Translations under genes and position numbers: made by a program
In this document: in pieces, positions 1,836 to 11,647 of the stretch
How the letters are laid out: the number at the start of each line of letters is the position of its first letter
Position numbering within the stretch: the stretch's first letter is position 1
Notes under the pieces: model-generated
What the model was told of the DNA's origin: nothing
What the model saw: only the letters and a program-made list of their open reading frames with translations
The model's database searches: none
NCBI GenBank assembly: GCA_029856365.1
Contig: JAHQWW010000115.1
Location: 1-12,332 of the forward strand
Reading direction: 5' to 3'
DNA: 12,332 nucleotides
Source: Candidatus Hodarchaeota archaeon
GTDB lineage: Archaea > Asgardarchaeota > Heimdallarchaeia > Hodarchaeales > Hodarchaeaceae

Positions 1836-1870
1836 AAAAAAAAGATGAGAAAGGGGCTCTTTCTCAATCT
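1836..1870 (-). terminator. Hairpin plus U-tract terminator of the 759-aa gene
   Basis: TGAGAAAG (1846-1853) / CTTTCTCA (1859-1866) forms a perfect 8-bp stem right after the TAG stop. It is followed on the minus strand by a run of 8 T (A-run 1836-1843). Confidence 0.7.
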
Positions 1871-4148
1871 ATGAACCGCCACCGAATATTTGATCGAATC
1901 CAACTGCGTCCATTTCTTCAAACAGGTCTTGGATTAAACCAAATTGTTGTGATTGAAGAAAATCATTTATTAATGTTTGTAAAGTTTCTATTGCTTCCTT
2001 AGTACCAAGTGAGAGCCCTGCAATGGATTTTATTGGATCAGCAAGATCTGTATCGGGTCTCGGAGCAGGAGGGTGAGGATAATGTAAAGTATTCTTCCAA
2101 TTATCTGTAATATCAGCAGAAATTACAGTGGTTTCATCAATTTCATAGCAACCTGCGGTAGCATTGGCTATTGCTAAATCCATCAGAAGTTTGGCTCTAT
2201 TTACCTCTGGATCTTGATTAAACTGTTCAAAGAATAGAGTACCATTATCCTGTGCAACACCTCTAGCAGCCGTATAGGTATCGTTGAATACACTTAATCC
2301 TTCAGTGAAAGAATAGGCAGAAGCAAGTGTATAATCTAGAGCTGTAAGCAAATGTTCTATCTCTGTGACGTTTGTGTAAAATGTACTAAGCATGTCCTTA
2401 AGGTTTATTAGCATAGGTTTGAGTGCATCATTAATAATGTCTCCATAGTCCTTTTGAATAAAATCACTGCTCTCATTTTGCGCCTTACCAATGTTATACT
2501 TGGCAGCTGCAAAGGTTTCACGAGTGTCACTCACCTCTGTCGAGAGAATATCTAACTCAGAACTGATCGCATCGAAATCCTTACCAGAGAAATCAATAGC
2601 GTTGATTGCTAGAACAACATCTTCAATCTCCATGTAACACTCAGTTCCATTAGTTGCTGCTCTCGCAAAGTATGCGAGAAGTTCGGTCATATCTTTGATG
2701 ATTTCTACTGTACCGTAGAAGGGTAATATTGAACCTTCTTTCAGTCCTTCGGTATCAATATCTTGAAGAGTATCATTAGCCTCTGTTAAATCGATAGCAG
2801 CATCCCCCATCCAATCATGAGCTCCTTCAAAATTTGAATCACCTAAATCATCTATTGCAAGAGTTGTTTTATAGGTGGCATTCAAAAAATCGAGAGCACC
2901 TGTTGCAACTTCAAGAATAATACCATATCCAGTTTCAGCTTCACCAACAATTGAAACAAAATCAGCCAGCTGGCCTGTTTCATCAGCAATTATGTCTTCC
3001 ATGATACCAGTTGTATCTTTTAATACGTCAATTACTCCATCTTTGGATTCACTGAAATTACCAATTGCATTAGATATCTTCTTTAATCCATCACTGAAAT
3101 CTTCGTTATAATCAGCTTCTAATCGGTTGATGGATCCACCAACGCCTCCGCCTATATCACTAGCTCCTAATACTGTGAATGTTTGGTTAAAACCTTCGAC
3201 TAGATTATAGTAACCAACTAATAAAGAGGGAATTTCATCAGAAAGTGTTGCTAAAATCCTTGAAATTTCTAGTATTGATGGCAGCTCTTGTAAATTGATA
3301 CCATTAAAATCCTCAGGAAGGAATGGTATCAATACTAATACCAAGAAGTTCCCTTGAACTTGGTCAAAGGCCACAGCTGATTCATGGAACCACTTGGCAG
3401 CACGTTTTGCAGCTTGTGAGAGATTTTCAATCTCTTCTGGATCACTTAGATCGATTCCGTTCTGAGCACCAGCACCACCTCCAAGTTCTACCCCAAAAAC
3501 ACTTGCAAATTCTGTTCCACCCGCTGCTAATGAGACACCACCGTCAACAATGTTGAACATTCCGTGATATATTAGAGGGACAGTGATCAAAAGAAAAATT
3601 ACTATGAGGGCAGCTAGCGGTTTAGTAATAAGAGAGAAAATAGAAATTTCTCCTTGTTTTGTCCAGAATCCAGTTGCTAGAGTAGAGAGGAAGAATCCAA
3701 GGAATAATGCTAGAAACTCGACAATAATGAGATCTAGAATGATCATCACTATGAGGATCATACTTACATCAATCGTTTCCGATATGTTACCAACAATTCC
3801 ACTCTCGAAGATCGCAACCACTGGAGTTGCTATACCAGTCGCCAAACCATAGGGATTGATAATAAAACCCAGAGTTAGCATATCGAGGATGTATAGAACT
3901 AGCCATGAAATTGGTGCTGCAAAGATACTAAGTAGACCTAATAGTTTAGAGCGGGATAAGATTCCTGTTAGACAAAAAGCGATTGGAATCACTAGCAGCT
4001 CTAATTGGAGTAGTAAAGCATTCTGTCTTGCGCCCAAAATTCCAAAGACAATTGCAATTAAAACTGGGGCAATAACAGCCGCTAAAAAACTCTGCCAGAG
4101 AGGAAGGGCTTTTATTGTGCGCAGATCATCAGATTCAGCTTCAAACAT
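1869..4148 (-). CDS. Hypothetical membrane protein: ~5-6 N-terminal TM segments plus a large acidic helical, probably extracellular and N-glycosylated domain
   Basis: 759-aa ORF. First ~195 aa are hydrophobic helices. The remainder is D/E-rich, amphipathic-helical and carries 11 N-x-S/T sequons. GTGA SD-like site upstream and a terminator downstream. Confidence 0.85.
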   Translation of the reverse strand: MFEAESDDLRTIKALPLWQSFLAAVIAPVLIAIVFGILGARQNALLLQLELLVIPIAFCLTGILSRSKLLGLLSIFAAPISWLVLYILDMLTLGFIINPYGLATGIATPVVAIFESGIVGNISETIDVSMILIVMIILDLIIVEFLALFLGFFLSTLATGFWTKQGEISIFSLITKPLAALIVIFLLITVPLIYHGMFNIVDGGVSLAAGGTEFASVFGVELGGGAGAQNGIDLSDPEEIENLSQAAKRAAKWFHESAVAFDQVQGNFLVLVLIPFLPEDFNGINLQELPSILEISRILATLSDEIPSLLVGYYNLVEGFNQTFTVLGASDIGGGVGGSINRLEADYNEDFSDGLKKISNAIGNFSESKDGVIDVLKDTTGIMEDIIADETGQLADFVSIVGEAETGYGIILEVATGALDFLNATYKTTLAIDDLGDSNFEGAHDWMGDAAIDLTEANDTLQDIDTEGLKEGSILPFYGTVEIIKDMTELLAYFARAATNGTECYMEIEDVVLAINAIDFSGKDFDAISSELDILSTEVSDTRETFAAAKYNIGKAQNESSDFIQKDYGDIINDALKPMLINLKDMLSTFYTNVTEIEHLLTALDYTLASAYSFTEGLSVFNDTYTAARGVAQDNGTLFFEQFNQDPEVNRAKLLMDLAIANATAGCYEIDETTVISADITDNWKNTLHYPHPPAPRPDTDLADPIKSIAGLSLGTKEAIETLQTLINDFLQSQQFGLIQDLFEEMDAVGFDQIFGGGS

Positions 4149-4343: not shown

Positions 4344-5240
4344 TTAAATTATAGAAATAAGCAAACTTATGAAACAGGTGACAAGTAATGCTGAACTCAA
4401 ATTAACAAAATCATTATTTATCAGTCGATTTCCTCGGTACAGTGTTGTTTTATTTCCACATCGTTTATGGGGGTTTGTTTCTGTTTCTTTTTTACAATGA
4501 TTACAATAATATATTCCTTGAATAGTTGCACCCTCAATTGAGTCGAGTATCGATCCCGAAAAACCGCCAACGATAATTAGAAAGAGAATAATAATTATTT
4601 GTCGATTAATGGCAATTGGAGGAAAAGAAATCACAATAGCGAAGAAATAGACAATCCCAATTAGTACACCCCCAAATATAGATGCGAGACAGCCATTAAG
4701 TGTTATCCCCCCGCTAGTACCTGGATCTACGATTCGACGTAAATTCGTGACTAATCTAGGAGGTTTTTTTGAAAGAATACCAATTTCTGTTGCCCATGTA
4801 TCGGCAGTATGAACTGAAAAAGCGACAAATACACCAATAAATAAGGGATTGTTGGGATTGTGCAAAATAGTGTCAGATTCAACTATTTTAGGGAGAAGTT
4901 CAAATAAAACATAACCAAAAGCGAATAATAATGGTATAAAACCATTAGCAATCACTTGCATTGCATCTCGTTTTACGGATCCTTTTGCAAAATCTATAGT
5001 TGTATTCGACTTGTCTTTTGCTTTCATTCTTGATAACATTGATGAACTGAAGAAGAAAACACAGAGTACGACCCAAAAGAAAGGGTAAATCACGAATAAC
5101 GAAATCCCTAGAATAGCAGCGACGGTTATTCCATATGGAACTGTGAGATATTTTTTTTTCAAGATTACAAAAAATATTGGTAAATTGAATAAGACCGAGA
5201 AAGGAACCATTAGAAGGAGATATGATATGATTGAATACAA
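4344..5240 (-). CDS. DUF92 (TMEM19/VTE6-like) integral membrane protein, cytidylyltransferase/CTP-dependent kinase-like superfamily
   Basis: Family motifs FFFSSS, K...RDAMQVIANG, TADTWATEIG, GTSGGITLNG, GSILDS.EGATIQ, C-x2-C...H..CG and INNDFVN. TTG start with a GAGG SD. Confidence 0.9.
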   Translation of the reverse strand: MYSIISYLLLMVPFSVLFNLPIFFVILKKKYLTVPYGITVAAILGISLFVIYPFFWVVLCVFFFSSSMLSRMKAKDKSNTTIDFAKGSVKRDAMQVIANGFIPLLFAFGYVLFELLPKIVESDTILHNPNNPLFIGVFVAFSVHTADTWATEIGILSKKPPRLVTNLRRIVDPGTSGGITLNGCLASIFGGVLIGIVYFFAIVISFPPIAINRQIIIILFLIIVGGFSGSILDSIEGATIQGIYYCNHCKKETETNPHKRCGNKTTLYRGNRLINNDFVNLSSALLVTCFISLLISII

Positions 5241-5445: not shown

Positions 5446-7401
5446 TTAAGAGAATTCTTTTCTAAATTCATCCCAAGTTTTAACTGTAAGTCCATATTTC
5501 CTGGCTTTTTCTAATTTTGCAGATCCAGGTTTTTCACCTATTACCAATAAATCCAGTTTTTTAGAAATTGAGGCCCATTCATAACCCTGTTGTTCAACTA
5601 ATTTCTTTAATTCCTTTTTTGTTAGCCCTTCGATTTTACCAGTAACATAGATAGTTTTATTAACTACTGGTTCTTGATCAAAAGGTATTTGTGGACCTTT
5701 ACTAGAAGGAAGGAACTGGTCCAAACCATTTGTTCTCACTCTTTTTGCTAATGGCTTTTTTCCATGACGATAAATGATTTCAACACCCTTTGCTAGAAGT
5801 TGATTTCCTAAAGAGGGATTATGAAGACCAGAATAGATATAATTAGCAGTGAGATCAGAGATCCCTTCCAGTAAAGTTAATTGTTTCACAGTTGCATTTT
5901 TCAAATCATCATAAGATTTAAAGCTTTTAGCTAAAGATTTTGCCATCCCCGTACCAAGAGACTCAATACCTAATCCTGCAAGAAATATATGAAAAGGAAG
6001 GGCTTTCTTTTCTTGAATACTGGTAAAAATTTTTGATCCATTCTTACCTAAATGATTCACAAGGACTCTTTCAGTTAATTTTTTATCATATAGGTCTGCA
6101 AAATGTCTAATAAGACCTAAATCATAAAGTTTTGCAATATTCTTTGGCCCTAAACCTTCGATATCAGTTATTCTCACCCAATGACGAATACTCTGGATAT
6201 CACGGTCACGACATACTGGTTCAGTGCAGATCAGGTTGACTCCATCACGCTTCAATACTGAACCACAGGAAGGACAGTAATTAGGAAATGATGTCTTATT
6301 CGCCCCCTTAGCGATTAATTCAGTTATCTTAGGGATAACATCACCAGAACGGATAACCATGACCGTGTCCCCCTCCGCCACCTCTAAAGCCTCTATAAAC
6401 TCAGCATTATGCAAGGTAGCTCGTCTGATAACAGCACCCATCACTTCGATTGGTTCTAGTTCTGCCACAGGAGTAAGTACCCCAGTCCTGCCAACTTGCC
6501 AAGTAATTTCTTGGACAATAGAAATGTCTCCCTGACTCGCAAATTTTAATGCAATCATCCATTTAGGATGATGTTCAGTTCTTCCTGCAGATACTCGTTG
6601 ATTTGCATCATTATACTTGAAGATGAGTCCATCAATCTCAAAATCTAGTGCTTGACGTTCTTGTTCGATACGTTGAAATAAGGTTTCAATATCACGTCTA
6701 ATAGGGGATGATAATAATTCAAAGTCAGCAGTATTGAATCCCCAAGAACGTAGAATCTCTCCATGAGCTTTCAGTGAGGCGTTCTCTTTTATTCCTAGTA
6801 ATTCAAATGCATAGAATTCTAATGACCTTTTGTCCAAGAAACTGAGATCTTTTTGTTTTACTGTACCAACTGCTAAATTTCGAGGACTACTATAATCTAT
6901 TCCTTCGACAGCTTTGATGCGGTTAAATTCCGAGACATACATGAAAAGCTCTCCACGAACATTGACAGCTGAAGTTGGGGGAATTATTTTCGGAATTGAT
7001 GAAATTTTAAAGACAGGCAAGGTCACATCATCTCCCATAACGCCATTTCCTCGTGTGGCAGCCTGAACCAAACTCCCATTTTCATAGATAAGGGATAAAG
7101 AAAAGCCATCGATCTTGTAACCAACGTAAAGATCGGCTCCTTGGCTCCATTTGACTACTTCATCAACATCGGTTGCTTTTTGACACGATAGCATGGGTAT
7201 TACATGGGTAACTTTCCCACCTTCAGGTGTTCCAACTATATGGAGAACAGGATTTTGAGGATCAATTTGTTGCAGCTTTTCTTCCAACGCATCATATGCT
7301 TCATCAGAAATCTCGGGTTCCCCATCATAATATTTCTTCTTATGATATAATATTTGATCCTCTAATTTTTTGATTTCAGGATTTTTTGACCTGTTCACCA
7401 T
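5446..7401 (-). CDS. ligA: NAD+-dependent DNA ligase
   Basis: Domain Ia YYDGEPEISDEAYD, adenylation motif KIDG, AATRGNG, VRGE, EIDGLIFK, WMIALKF, OB fold QVGRTGVLTPVA / RATLHN / RSGDVIP, Cys4 zinc finger CPSCG..LIC..C, HhH repeats (IEGLG, LGIESLG, LEGIS), C-terminal BRCT (VTG...KPGS.KL.KA...W). Confidence 0.97.
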   Translation of the reverse strand: MVNRSKNPEIKKLEDQILYHKKKYYDGEPEISDEAYDALEEKLQQIDPQNPVLHIVGTPEGGKVTHVIPMLSCQKATDVDEVVKWSQGADLYVGYKIDGFSLSLIYENGSLVQAATRGNGVMGDDVTLPVFKISSIPKIIPPTSAVNVRGELFMYVSEFNRIKAVEGIDYSSPRNLAVGTVKQKDLSFLDKRSLEFYAFELLGIKENASLKAHGEILRSWGFNTADFELLSSPIRRDIETLFQRIEQERQALDFEIDGLIFKYNDANQRVSAGRTEHHPKWMIALKFASQGDISIVQEITWQVGRTGVLTPVAELEPIEVMGAVIRRATLHNAEFIEALEVAEGDTVMVIRSGDVIPKITELIAKGANKTSFPNYCPSCGSVLKRDGVNLICTEPVCRDRDIQSIRHWVRITDIEGLGPKNIAKLYDLGLIRHFADLYDKKLTERVLVNHLGKNGSKIFTSIQEKKALPFHIFLAGLGIESLGTGMAKSLAKSFKSYDDLKNATVKQLTLLEGISDLTANYIYSGLHNPSLGNQLLAKGVEIIYRHGKKPLAKRVRTNGLDQFLPSSKGPQIPFDQEPVVNKTIYVTGKIEGLTKKELKKLVEQQGYEWASISKKLDLLVIGEKPGSAKLEKARKYGLTVKTWDEFRKEFS

Positions 7402-7585: not shown

Positions 7586-8422
7586 ATGGAAATTGATTTA
7601 CTTTTGAAAGTTGGGGGATCCTGTGTTTCCAATAAGATATTATTATATGAAGCATTGAAAACGAAATCTCCCGAAGATATTAAGACAGCTCTTAATGTTA
7701 GTCCAGAAAGAATTGATCAAATAGCTGCAGAAATAGGAGACGCGTTCTCCATCTTGAGTAAAATGATCATCTTGACTGGTGTCGGCAGTCCTGGTCATTT
7801 TACTGTCTTAAAACATGGATTACATAAAGGGAATAGTGGGGAGCTTGAACAGCATCTTGGGCTACTGGAGGCTCAAATTGCAGTAAATCGATTAAGACAG
7901 ACCATGTTAAAATCTTTTTTAAAGTACAAAATTCCAGCGTTTCAAGCTTACGCTTCTAGTATGTATGAATCTGATAAAATGCGAATTATAAGGGCAAATA
8001 CAGAGAATATAGAGAAGTTTCTAGCATCAGGATTGGTACCAGTGATTTCTGGGGATATGGTTCCAGATGTGACAATGGGATATAGTGTACTTTCGGGAGA
8101 TCAGATATTGGCTGATTTAGCCAAGAAATTTTTACCCAAAAAAATAGTTTATGGGTCGGATGTGGATGGTATTTTTGATTCAGACCCCAAAGTAAATCCT
8201 AATTCTCAATTAATACCAGAAATATCTCTTACTGAAATAGATTCTATAATTGAAGAAATCTCTGGAGAAGACGCGTCGGGACAGATGAAAGGAAAGCTTA
8301 TAGAGATTAAAACTTTACTAAATACTGGTTTTAAAGATATTATTCTTCTTAACATGACGAAAAAAGGAATTCTTTTTCGGGTACTGAATGAGGAAGATGT
8401 ACCTCATACTAAATTTCATTGA
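7586..8422 (+). CDS. ipk: Isopentenyl phosphate kinase (amino-acid kinase family)
   Basis: KVGGS..SNK, GVGSPGH with the IPK/FomA signature His, VPVISGD, VLSGDQI, SDVDGIF..DP, DASGQMKGKL (canonical DVTGGM.GK). Confidence 0.8.
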   Translation: MEIDLLLKVGGSCVSNKILLYEALKTKSPEDIKTALNVSPERIDQIAAEIGDAFSILSKMIILTGVGSPGHFTVLKHGLHKGNSGELEQHLGLLEAQIAVNRLRQTMLKSFLKYKIPAFQAYASSMYESDKMRIIRANTENIEKFLASGLVPVISGDMVPDVTMGYSVLSGDQILADLAKKFLPKKIVYGSDVDGIFDSDPKVNPNSQLIPEISLTEIDSIIEEISGEDASGQMKGKLIEIKTLLNTGFKDIILLNMTKKGILFRVLNEEDVPHTKFH

Positions 8423-10094: not shown

Positions 10095-10466
10095 TTATTG
10101 AACATTATATCTTTGAAAATATTGAGTTCTTGCACGTTTTAATCGTTTTTTCCGTTCTCTGCTTTTCTTAACAACGGTTCTTCTTTTCTGTTTTTTAAAT
10201 TTATCTTTTTTAGATGAATGAGTTGATAATTTACTTGAGTGTGATCGATTAATTTTCTTTTTAGGATACTTCTTCTTTTTCTTCTCTATTTGGGTATTTA
10301 TTGAGGATTTTGTGACATGCGGGATCTTTTTGGGTGAAACAGAGGCAAATTGCCGCTTTTTCTTCTTCATGATCGCTTTTGTTTTTTCTTCTTCTTCCTC
10401 GAAATACTTTGTTGCGATATCTATTTCTGTGCGACCCCGTTTGTTTCTTCTTGAATGGACTGTCAT
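10095..10466 (-). CDS. Highly basic Lys/Arg-rich low-complexity protein of unknown function (123 aa)
   Basis: The GTG at 10475 in the ORF track lies inside an archaeal SD, AGGTGA (10477-10472), spaced 5 nt from the ATG at 10466, so that ATG is the better start. Minus-strand T-tracts follow the stop (10035-10056). Confidence 0.75.
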   Translation of the reverse strand: MTVHSRRNKRGRTEIDIATKYFEEEEEKTKAIMKKKKRQFASVSPKKIPHVTKSSINTQIEKKKKKYPKKKINRSHSSKLSTHSSKKDKFKKQKRRTVVKKSRERKKRLKRARTQYFQRYNVQ

Positions 10467-10471
10467 TGAAG

Positions 10472-10477
10472 TCACCT
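10472..10477 (-). promoter_or_regulatory. Shine-Dalgarno site AGGTGA
   Basis: Complementary to the 16S 3' end (UCACCU), 5 nt before the ATG at 10466. Confidence 0.7.
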
Positions 10478-10485
10478 GTAATCAA

Positions 10486-10830
10486 TATCGAGACTGTACA
10501 AATGTTACTTGTCTCGATAGTAGTTCTTTGTACGTCCCTAATCAGCTCAGAAGCGTCTCAGAGTCTTTCTGCTTTTCTCCCATGTGTTAAGTAATGATAA
10601 ACCTTATTATTGTTTAACATGGCGAGGTTTAAGCTATTGCTCTATCAACGATTTACGGGTCTGAATTAGTTCAGATAAATTATATTCTTTTTTCGAAACA
10701 CATTTGTTGTATATTGTTAGACTTAAACTACTGGTGTCTTATAAGTTTAGTCATTCATTCATCGTATCATACACAATTCTTAATTTGAAGTTTAAGCCAT
10801 GCTATGATACTTCTTGTACTACTATGAGCC
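10486..10830. ncRNA. Candidate structured RNA (long 5' leader of the basic-protein gene, or an independent ncRNA). No known family recognised.
   Basis: Series of inverted repeats (10486-10519, 10548-10571, 10577-10626, 10651-10680, 10720-10752, 10764-10810) plus long-range pairing of 10513-10524 with 10818-10828. No convincing ORF. Confidence 0.45.
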
Positions 10831-10850
10831 TTAGATTTTTAAGCTTATCC

Positions 10851-10858
10851 TTTTATAA
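10851..10858. promoter_or_regulatory. Candidate TATA box usable in both directions
   Basis: TTTTATAA (+) / TTATAAAA (-). On the minus strand it predicts a start near 10828-10830, matching the edge of the long-range stem. On the + strand it could serve the HAD gene. Confidence 0.45.
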
Positions 10859-10915
10859 TCCATGATAGAAAATTTTTGAAGCAGAAAAAGTAATTCATCA
10901 TCCGTTGGGTCGAGA

Positions 10916-11647
10916 ATGACTGATTTTCAAGTAATTTTTTTTAATGCCGGAGGAACACTAATTCAATTGAAGAATACAACATTGCCTATCCTTTATTCTC
11001 AACTTATGTCACGAATTCTAAAGAAATCTTTTTCACCCGAAGAAATATTCTTAGCTTTCCGCAAAGCTGAAGCATGGGTACTTTCTCGGAGAATACCAGG
11101 AGCATTATTCTCAGATCTAGACCAACGAAAATACCAAAATATTTTTTATGGTCAATTAGGGATTTTTAACCGAAAAAAAATCAACTGGATTGAAAAACAG
11201 ATTGCTGGCAAATTAGAAATGGATTATGTCTTGGAAAAAGGTACAAAGACATTGCTGCGTTTTTTGAAACAAAAATACCAGCTTGGACTTATATCAAACT
11301 GGGATGATTCATTAATAGATATCTTGCAAAACCTTGGAATTTTGGACTATTTTGATTCGATTACTCTATCTGGGGATATAGGAATAAGTAAGCCTGATGC
11401 TGCAATATTCAAATCCGCTCTCGATGACTTTCCAGAGGTTAAACCAAAACAGACTGTTTATATTGGAGATGAATATCTGAACGATGTTGTTCCAGCTCAA
11501 AAGTTGAAAATGGTTGCTATTCTTTTTGATAAAGGGCCCTCAGGCATGCATGGACGACCTTTTCAAACTGCTGTGAAATGTACTAGAATCAAAGAACTAA
11601 ACCAATTACCCGAAATTCTAAACAAACACGCTATAGTTCGTAAGTAA
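10916..11647 (+). CDS. HAD-superfamily subfamily IA protein (REG-2/HDHD3-like) with motif I Asp replaced by Asn
   Basis: Motif I FFNAGGTL (canonical FFDxGGTL), motif II ISNWD, motif III KPD..IF, motif IV YIGD...ND. Confidence 0.9.
   Translation: MTDFQVIFFNAGGTLIQLKNTTLPILYSQLMSRILKKSFSPEEIFLAFRKAEAWVLSRRIPGALFSDLDQRKYQNIFYGQLGIFNRKKINWIEKQIAGKLEMDYVLEKGTKTLLRFLKQKYQLGLISNWDDSLIDILQNLGILDYFDSITLSGDIGISKPDAAIFKSALDDFPEVKPKQTVYIGDEYLNDVVPAQKLKMVAILFDKGPSGMHGRPFQTAVKCTRIKELNQLPEILNKHAIVRK

Follow-up and report, generated by a model that had tools for sequence, protein, structure and literature searches.

Messenger RNA leaders in archaea are usually short. In bacteria, the leaders of ribosomal protein mRNAs serve as autogenous translational operators, and in archaea L7Ae binds a k-turn in its own leader. 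In leaders of the E. coli ompA type, a stem-loop at the 5′ terminus acts as a stabilizer of the mRNA. Bidirectional BRE-TATA-BRE promoters, with starts 49-50 bp apart, were described in Pyrococcus furiosus by dRNA-seq and in vitro transcription (PMC6640164). The same article, in a passage citing Smollett et al. 2017, refers to long 5′ untranslated leaders in Methanocaldococcus jannaschii (PMC6640164). A literature search found no cis-regulatory RNA of an Asgard archaeon.

The Hodarchaeales are among the closest archaeal relatives of eukaryotes. The locus described here comes from a Candidatus Hodarchaeota genome assembly of 4.24 Mb, 83.6% complete (GCA_029856365.1); the whole stretch of DNA analysed, 12,332 nucleotides of contig JAHQWW010000115.1, is referred to as the window. 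A 449-nt spacer between two divergent genes (10467-10915) holds the region of interest. A sequence-only reading had described this region as an unrecognised structured RNA of ~320 nt closed by a terminal stem, and had proposed either a new ncRNA or a cis-leader. The cis-leader is the part of that proposal that stood, on grounds of selection, compensatory change in hairpins, contiguity with the gene and the lack of a terminator; the single closed RNA did not. The region is probably the main part of a long (about 250-350 nt), cis-acting 5′ leader carried by the minus-strand mRNA of a small, very basic protein. The features are listed in Table 1.

Table 1. Features of the spacer and of the genes on either side, from the HAD gene to the basic-protein gene; positions are those of the window.
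Feature	Position	Strand	Remarks
HAD-family hydrolase gene	10916-11647	+	Borders the spacer
B′ box GGATAAGCTTAAAAATCTAAGG, BRE/TATA-like; TATA core CTTAAAAAT at 10843-10835	10829-10850	-	In every long-spacer lineage
Predicted transcription start	10811-10815	-	Purines 20-24 nt after the TATA core; usual archaeal TATA-to-start distance
H4, 5′-terminal stem-loop	10764-10810	-	Outer stem GUAUCAUA/UAUGAUAC, inner stem CUUAA/UUAAG
A′ box CTAAACTTATAAG, TATA-like, same orientation as B′	10738-10750	-	Most conserved spacer motif; degenerate in clade D
Helix enclosing the A′ box, GACUAAACU/AGUUUAAGUC	10720-10752	-	Moderate support; broken in several sequences
H3, small hairpin CUGAA/UUCAG	10659-10676	-	86% paired, no covariation in clade A
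H2, long hairpin, variable top of the central domain	10577-10626	-	-15.2 kcal/mol; 71% paired, 7 pairs with double changes
H1a, hairpin CAGAA/UUCUG with GACUC-type loop	10548-10571	-	86% paired in clade A
Conserved UUAGGGAC and A/C-rich linker ACAWACAAAGA	10520-10541	-	Nearly invariant across clades
H0, 9-bp hairpin UAUCGAGAC/GUCUCGAUA	10486-10519 (arms 10486-10494/10511-10519)	-	Universal core element, 8 nt before the Shine-Dalgarno
Shine-Dalgarno (SD) AGGUGA and start codon ATG	10477-10472; 10466-10464	-	CAGGTGAT and ATG/TTG kept in all relatives
Gene for 123-aa Lys/Arg-rich orphan protein	10095-10466	-	Other border of the spacer

The pair of HAD and basic-protein genes, separated by 368-477 nt, was found in 19 congeners, out of 21 congeneric species genomes, and at 13 further loci taken from metagenomes and from contigs encoding homologous proteins; in the 19 congeners the spacer measures 368-447 nt. 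The comparison set consisted of 33 further spacers from nine or ten clades. Synteny is constant in the relatives, with the HAD gene, the spacer, the basic-protein gene and a convergent deaminase gene in that order. The most divergent locus, L070, has a different upstream gene and a spacer of just 167 nt. In the two congeners without the basic-protein gene (G008 and G015) the HAD gene was likewise not found; both genomes are incomplete. The true start of the basic-protein gene is the ATG at 10466, with AGGUGA ahead of it. In one relative a TnpB/Cas12f-like gene (OrfB_IS605) lies past the deaminase gene (L071:1349-1487). Elsewhere in the window this Asgard archaeon encodes a complete bacterial-type NAD+-dependent DNA ligase with adenylation, OB, HhH and BRCT domains (5446-7401, minus strand) and a 759-aa ORF without a Pfam match at E ≤ 0.01 (1869-4148, minus strand). 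Near each other (4344-5240 and 7586-8422) stand two possible isoprenoid-lipid genes, one for a DUF92 membrane protein and one for a member of the amino-acid-kinase family whose size is like that of an isopentenyl phosphate kinase.

Conservation in relatives was borne out by the comparison of spacers. Identity of 10476-10850 between species is 64-85%, compared to 31-59% at the 4-fold degenerate sites of the HAD gene, and is close to the 79-82% of HAD codon positions 1+2. These values indicate purifying selection on 10476-10850. From 10851 to the HAD start, identity is 35-60%, one very close pair excepted. Since identity falls beyond the box at 10829-10850, the constrained zone runs from the box to the basic-protein gene and belongs to the side of that gene.

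The region is indeed unrecognised, in that Rfam 15 gave no match at or above the gathering threshold in the window or in 14 related loci, and the Rfam scans showed no known riboswitch aptamer. A permissive scan of 10300-11000 gave three C/D-box matches at chance level (12-13 bits, E 3-10). A C/D box sRNA near 10882-10905 and 10758-10766, defined by guide regions and by a conserved box C (RUGAUGA) at a distance of 50-70 nt from a conserved box D (CUGA), was rejected; GAUGAUGA (10897-10890) and GAUGAAUGA (10766-10758) are not conserved in relatives. The view that the region is not SRP RNA, RNase P RNA or tRNA also held. RNase P RNA (RF00373) has no match in the genome itself, which is 83.6% complete; it has matches at other loci in 13 of the 15 congeners searched, 11 of them above the gathering score, and the spacer is therefore not the RNase P RNA gene. 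The only match of the genome to SRP RNA (RF01857) is on another contig, C9, at 69.6 bits (E 2.8e-15, below the gathering score of 96.5 bits), and ARAGORN found no tRNA or tmRNA. A multicopy MITE or other repeat was eliminated by the presence of a single full-length copy of the spacer in its own genome, where other matches are no longer than 32 nt with E above 0.01. A small ORF on either strand was likewise rejected; translated matches across clades are 15-30 aa long, lie on conserved DNA motifs and do not share starts or ends.

The B′ box probably drives the basic-protein gene. A purine-rich GATAAG, 5′ of the TATA core in the minus sense, fits a BRE. The 23-mer GATAAGCTTAAAAATCTAGGGAT is common to all long-spacer lineages, the window (10849-10827, minus strand) differing from it by 2 mismatches. 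Its own genome has no second copy of this B′ 23-mer; when up to 3 mismatches to the clade-A consensus are allowed, 7 of the 21 congeners searched have it once, at the same locus, and the two 3-mismatch matches elsewhere in the class equal the control rate. An earlier prediction of a start at ~10830 had relied on TTATAAAA, which is present on the minus strand at 10858-10851 but is not conserved in relatives; the conserved box is CTTAAAAAT at 10843-10835. The flank of the TATA core opposite GATAAG is also conserved, and conservation of the two flanks extends over 22 nt. The box may thus be a bidirectional BRE-TATA-BRE promoter serving the HAD gene too, and the starts predicted at ~10812 (minus) and ~10866 (plus) lie about 50 bp apart. 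Within the genome, the regions upstream of tRNA genes, k-mer biases in position and strand, and motif-to-gene orientation, all based on crude gene calls, were uninformative as to the consensus and orientation of promoters. Directly after the TATA core there is a conserved GGGAUCAC, similar to the 16S rRNA 3′ end and complementary to the SD of the gene. It is treated as promoter flank, though it would become an anti-SD if transcription began farther upstream. Alifold suggested that GAUCAC (10827-10824) pairs with the SD (10472-10475); this was rejected, as GAUCAC lies upstream of the predicted start and the pairing has only 4 bp. In clade A, alifold gave no anti-SD element conserved inside the predicted transcript.

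Seven of nine clades have a hairpin whose first base lies 19-24 nt past the TATA core, at the place expected for an archaeal start. By a crude test, a stem starts at the position of H4 in 20 of 33 sequences, compared to about 20% of shuffles. The outer stem of H4 is 96-99% paired with three double changes in clade A/F, and 98.8% paired with one double change in 10 close relatives. Between clades unrelated stems stand at this place, among them AAGACAUCUU/AAGUUGUCUU, GAAAUAUUUG/CAGAUAUUUC, GAACAUC/GAUGUUC, GAGAUUCAA/UUGAAUCUU, GUAUCAC/GUGAUAC, GUAUCUC/GAGAUAC, GAGGCAUC/GAUGCUUC and AUAGAAA/UUUCUAU. A column-based covariation analysis of the inner stem failed because the stem shifts register between species. 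Clade-wise alifold z-scores over H4 were -4.4 and -6.2 on the minus strand vs. -3.3 and -3.6 on the plus strand; in clade D H4 folds better on the plus strand, and clade B has no foldable hairpin.

The A′ and B′ boxes share the core GA.TAARCTTAWAA. In six clades A′ follows B′ at a constant 84-87 nt, and this holds even for clade B, in which no foldable hairpin intervenes. This distance corresponds to about nine turns of DNA, centre to centre (L009-L028, L056-L069). The fixed spacing could reflect phasing at the level of DNA or tandem promoters. The A′ box may represent a conserved loop or else an internal promoter, and a leader begun from it would be ~250 nt long; no other conserved TATA-like motif was found between it and the basic-protein gene. 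Clades A, C and G, and some members of clade B, have the helix around the A′ box, with changes from A-U to G-C or G-U. It is 78% paired in clade A, with 13 wobble pairs if read on the minus strand vs. 2 on the plus strand. As read from the sequences, UAAAC/GUUUA is replaced by UAGAC/GUCUA or GUUUA in clades C and G.

H0 is the best-supported element of the whole spacer. With a covariance model of H0 and the ribosome-binding region, to which 32 sequences were aligned, 90% of cells are paired compared to 73% in shuffles, and none of 500 shuffles reached 90%. Double-sided changes occur in eight of the nine pairs, and the covariation score is 0.413 vs. 0.159, with slid controls at or below 0.118. 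Its G-U pairs are twice as many on the minus as on the plus strand, 12 vs. 6. The model has no other match in the genome. L070 has retained H0 despite its 167-nt spacer, and the short leader there has its own TATA.

In the central domain, about 10535-10720, sequence is conserved within clades and extent is variable. The base of H2, CUC-CCAUG/CAUGG-GAG, is kept and the upper part varies; the hairpin is about 50 nt in clade A and an 11-nt mini-hairpin in clade B, and is absent in L018 and clade D. Its wobble pairs favour neither strand. The strand had been called ambiguous from wobble pairs, and counts are indeed mixed; across relatives this long hairpin is neutral rather than favouring plus. 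The GACUC-type loop of H1a is found by eye on other stems, GGCUUA/UAAGCC in clade C, UAAC/GUUA in clade B, GGAAC/GUUCC in clade D and GAAC/GUUU in L018, and the pyrimidine arm of H1a (tract 10548-10553) has three possible, mutually exclusive pairing registers. At the place matching H3, clades C and G have UUGAAG/CUUCAA. For clade A, alifold gives a long rod with the long-range helices CUAAUUCAG/CUGAUUAG and UAGAGC/GACUCUG, and in this model H3 competes with the pairing to CUGAUUAG. With all clades in one alignment, no part but the 3′ end was aligned well enough for alifold. The covariation of the central domain is weak, with an alifold term of -0.71 kcal/mol. A single consistent secondary structure for 10535-10720 was rejected; at least three competing schemes fit, and none does so across clades.

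The structures are likely carried by the minus strand. This strand is favoured by the place of H4 with respect to the box, the alifold z-score of the 3′ part, the wobble pairs of H0 and of the A′-box helix, and the avoidance of U runs. In 16 diverse sequences the z-score of the 3′ part was -10.8 on the minus strand vs. -4.7 on the plus strand. Runs of five or more U are archaeal termination signals; they occur in the minus-sense leader of three of 33 sequences, compared to 11.5 expected from composition. The wobble pairs of the TCTGAA hairpin favour plus. On the minus strand no terminator-like hairpin or site was found between the structures and the basic-protein gene, and no conserved processing motif lies ahead of the gene. 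In L069, a divergent relative, the leader holds a palindromic A7-ACCCUCCAAAGGGU-U4 hairpin (L069:640-670) resembling a two-way terminator, of a kind absent from the other leaders. L069 belongs as well to the only three sequences with a minus-sense U5 run, here placed elsewhere, in the loop of H4. A leader is favoured because there is no terminator or U run, H0 abuts the SD, no TATA is nearer, and L070 has H0 in a short leader. The region is contiguous with the gene and probably on the same strand, and shows compensatory change in H0 and positional conservation in H4.

At 90% clustering the basic protein has 42 homologues. They are unnamed and 86-128 aa long, and every one comes from a Hodarchaeales/Heimdall-type MAG. 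A profile search run exhaustively against 1.84 billion representatives returned only 7 clusters, and neither this search nor Pfam, PDB or the Atlas gave relatives outside the family, which is confined to one genus-level group. The ends of the protein are conserved (MTxHSRRNKRGRTEIDIATxYFEEE and QKRRxVVKK...RxQYFQRYN), and the middle is variable and rich in Ser and Lys. An AlphaFold model contains a single helix (residues 17-41), with low confidence in the remainder, and is too poor for a fold search (pLDDT 65, pTM 0.24); the protein is predicted to be mostly disordered. Binding of RNA by this protein is a conjecture to which its charge is the sole pointer.

From these features we infer promoter use, the transcript ends and a regulatory mechanism. 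Transcription would start at about 10812, ~22 nt after the BRE/TATA-like box, and the RNA would open with the stem-loop at 10810-10764. It would then pass the A′ box (10750-10738), a possible internal promoter, and continue through a variable, probably rod-like central domain, about 10720-10535, to end with the conserved hairpin at 10519-10486, 8 nt before the SD. Such a leader would act in cis for post-transcriptional control. The 5′ stem-loop may stabilize the message, and the SD-proximal hairpin, with its conserved stem sequence UCGAG/CUCGA, would be the operator that sets translation. The most economical candidate for the binder is the basic protein itself, in a feedback loop; autogenous control through H0 is the mechanism we prefer.

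An alternative, which we consider unlikely, is that the spacer is a control region at the level of DNA, the TATA-like boxes being promoters or factor sites and the inverted repeats operators for transcription factors. The extended B′ box is specific to this locus and conserved beyond the needs of a generic promoter, its spacing from A′ is held in the hairpin-less clade B, and in both H0 and H4 the stem bases keep their sequence, all in favour of this reading. Against it stand loops of H0 that vary from about 8 to 40 nt, stems extended by non-conserved complementary bases (in clade D, for example, to 12 bp with two U-G pairs), the tolerance of G-U pairs, and inner stems of H4 that change completely yet stay complementary. 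Conservation also spans 350 nt, not short sites alone, and the only conserved promoter-like boxes are about 300 nt upstream of H0.

It is quite unlikely that the B′ promoter gives rise to a separate or processed minus-strand ncRNA of about 250-340 nt that ends before the gene and possibly acts with the basic protein. Structured ncRNAs are of comparable length, conservation and multi-hairpin build, no known family matches, an apical hairpin of variable length is typical of structured RNAs, and alifold suggests a long rod-like central domain. Such an RNA would be expected to end or be processed before the gene, where there is neither a termination signal nor a conserved processing motif; its best-conserved element adjoins the SD, L018, clade D and L070 do without its central parts, and its overall covariation is weak. 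An RNP of the leader RNA and the basic protein, which had been suggested earlier, is pure conjecture. In the form of a Hodarchaeales-specific ribonucleoprotein, made of the disordered basic protein and a stable 250-340-nt RNA that is cleaved from the leader or made separately, it is very unlikely.

Runs of T5 or longer (U5+ in RNA) are found in the plus sense in 29 of 33 sequences, which argues against a plus-strand transcript as carrier of the structures, whether an upstream or antisense RNA from the A box or a long leader of the HAD gene. We consider this highly improbable. In its favour, the long hairpin has plus-strand G-U pairs in the window, one alifold window over this hairpin in clade A gave -4.4 on the plus strand vs. 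-2.5 on the minus strand, and the TATA boxes are near-symmetric, as in the bidirectional promoters documented in P. furiosus (PMC6640164). A start from the A box would land in the 5′ arm of H4, conservation drops from the B box to the HAD start, and H0 and the 3′ region favour minus.

As for the closed RNA of the sequence-only reading, all of the pairings that it listed exist, and its closing stem has 11 bp and one bulge (10513-24/10818-28). The stems are thus present, but the closing stem is not kept in close relatives. In 10 of these, 67% of its cells are paired and 6 of its 11 pairs depart via unpaired cells alone. Its 5′ arm (10513-10519) doubles as the 3′ arm of H0. With the shift of the predicted start from ~10830 to ~10812, its 3′ arm falls upstream of the start and therefore outside the transcript. 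Folding of 10511-10830 against dinucleotide shuffles gave modest z-scores, -1.77 (plus) and -2.47 (minus). A bulge-helix-bulge processing helix at this stem was rejected; the stem has only one 1-nt bulge and is not conserved. One ~320-nt RNA so closed is barely credible, for its 11-bp stem, though real in the window and part of the MFE fold of both strands, clashes with H0, which is conserved in all lineages.

The putative leader may now be compared with the systems described at the outset. It resembles autogenous operators in having a conserved hairpin just before the ribosome-binding site of the gene of a very basic protein, with a conserved stem sequence and compensatory change. Unlike them, it has no k-turn or known leader motif and no Rfam match; those operators are far shorter, and the protein here is an orphan whose binding is putative. 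H4 is like the ompA-type stem-loop in that it starts a few nt from the 5′ end, here a predicted one, and in that its position is kept as its sequence changes. The archaeal decay machinery differs from that acting on ompA-type leaders, and clade B has no hairpin. The B′ box shares with the BRE-TATA-BRE promoters of P. furiosus a near-symmetric TATA core with conserved flanks, a place between divergent genes, and predicted starts ~50 bp apart; its flanks, in contrast, are conserved over 22 nt and unique to the locus, and its bidirectional use is putative. The promoter architecture, in which a TATA box specific to the locus and flanked by conserved sequence is followed at a fixed 84-87 nt by a second box, lends itself to testing.

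Like the long leaders of M. jannaschii, this would be an unusually long leader for an archaeal mRNA. In contrast to those, this one has kept its sequence, and part of its structure, throughout a genus, and it would precede one orphan gene only, so that we regard it as specific to one orphan gene of one Asgard genus. It would be one more, unusually long example of a structured cis-acting mRNA leader rather than a new class of RNA. A leader of ~350 nt, under selection at about the level of codon positions 1+2 and joined to the gene of an orphan protamine-like protein, would provide an entry to post-transcriptional control in Asgard archaea.
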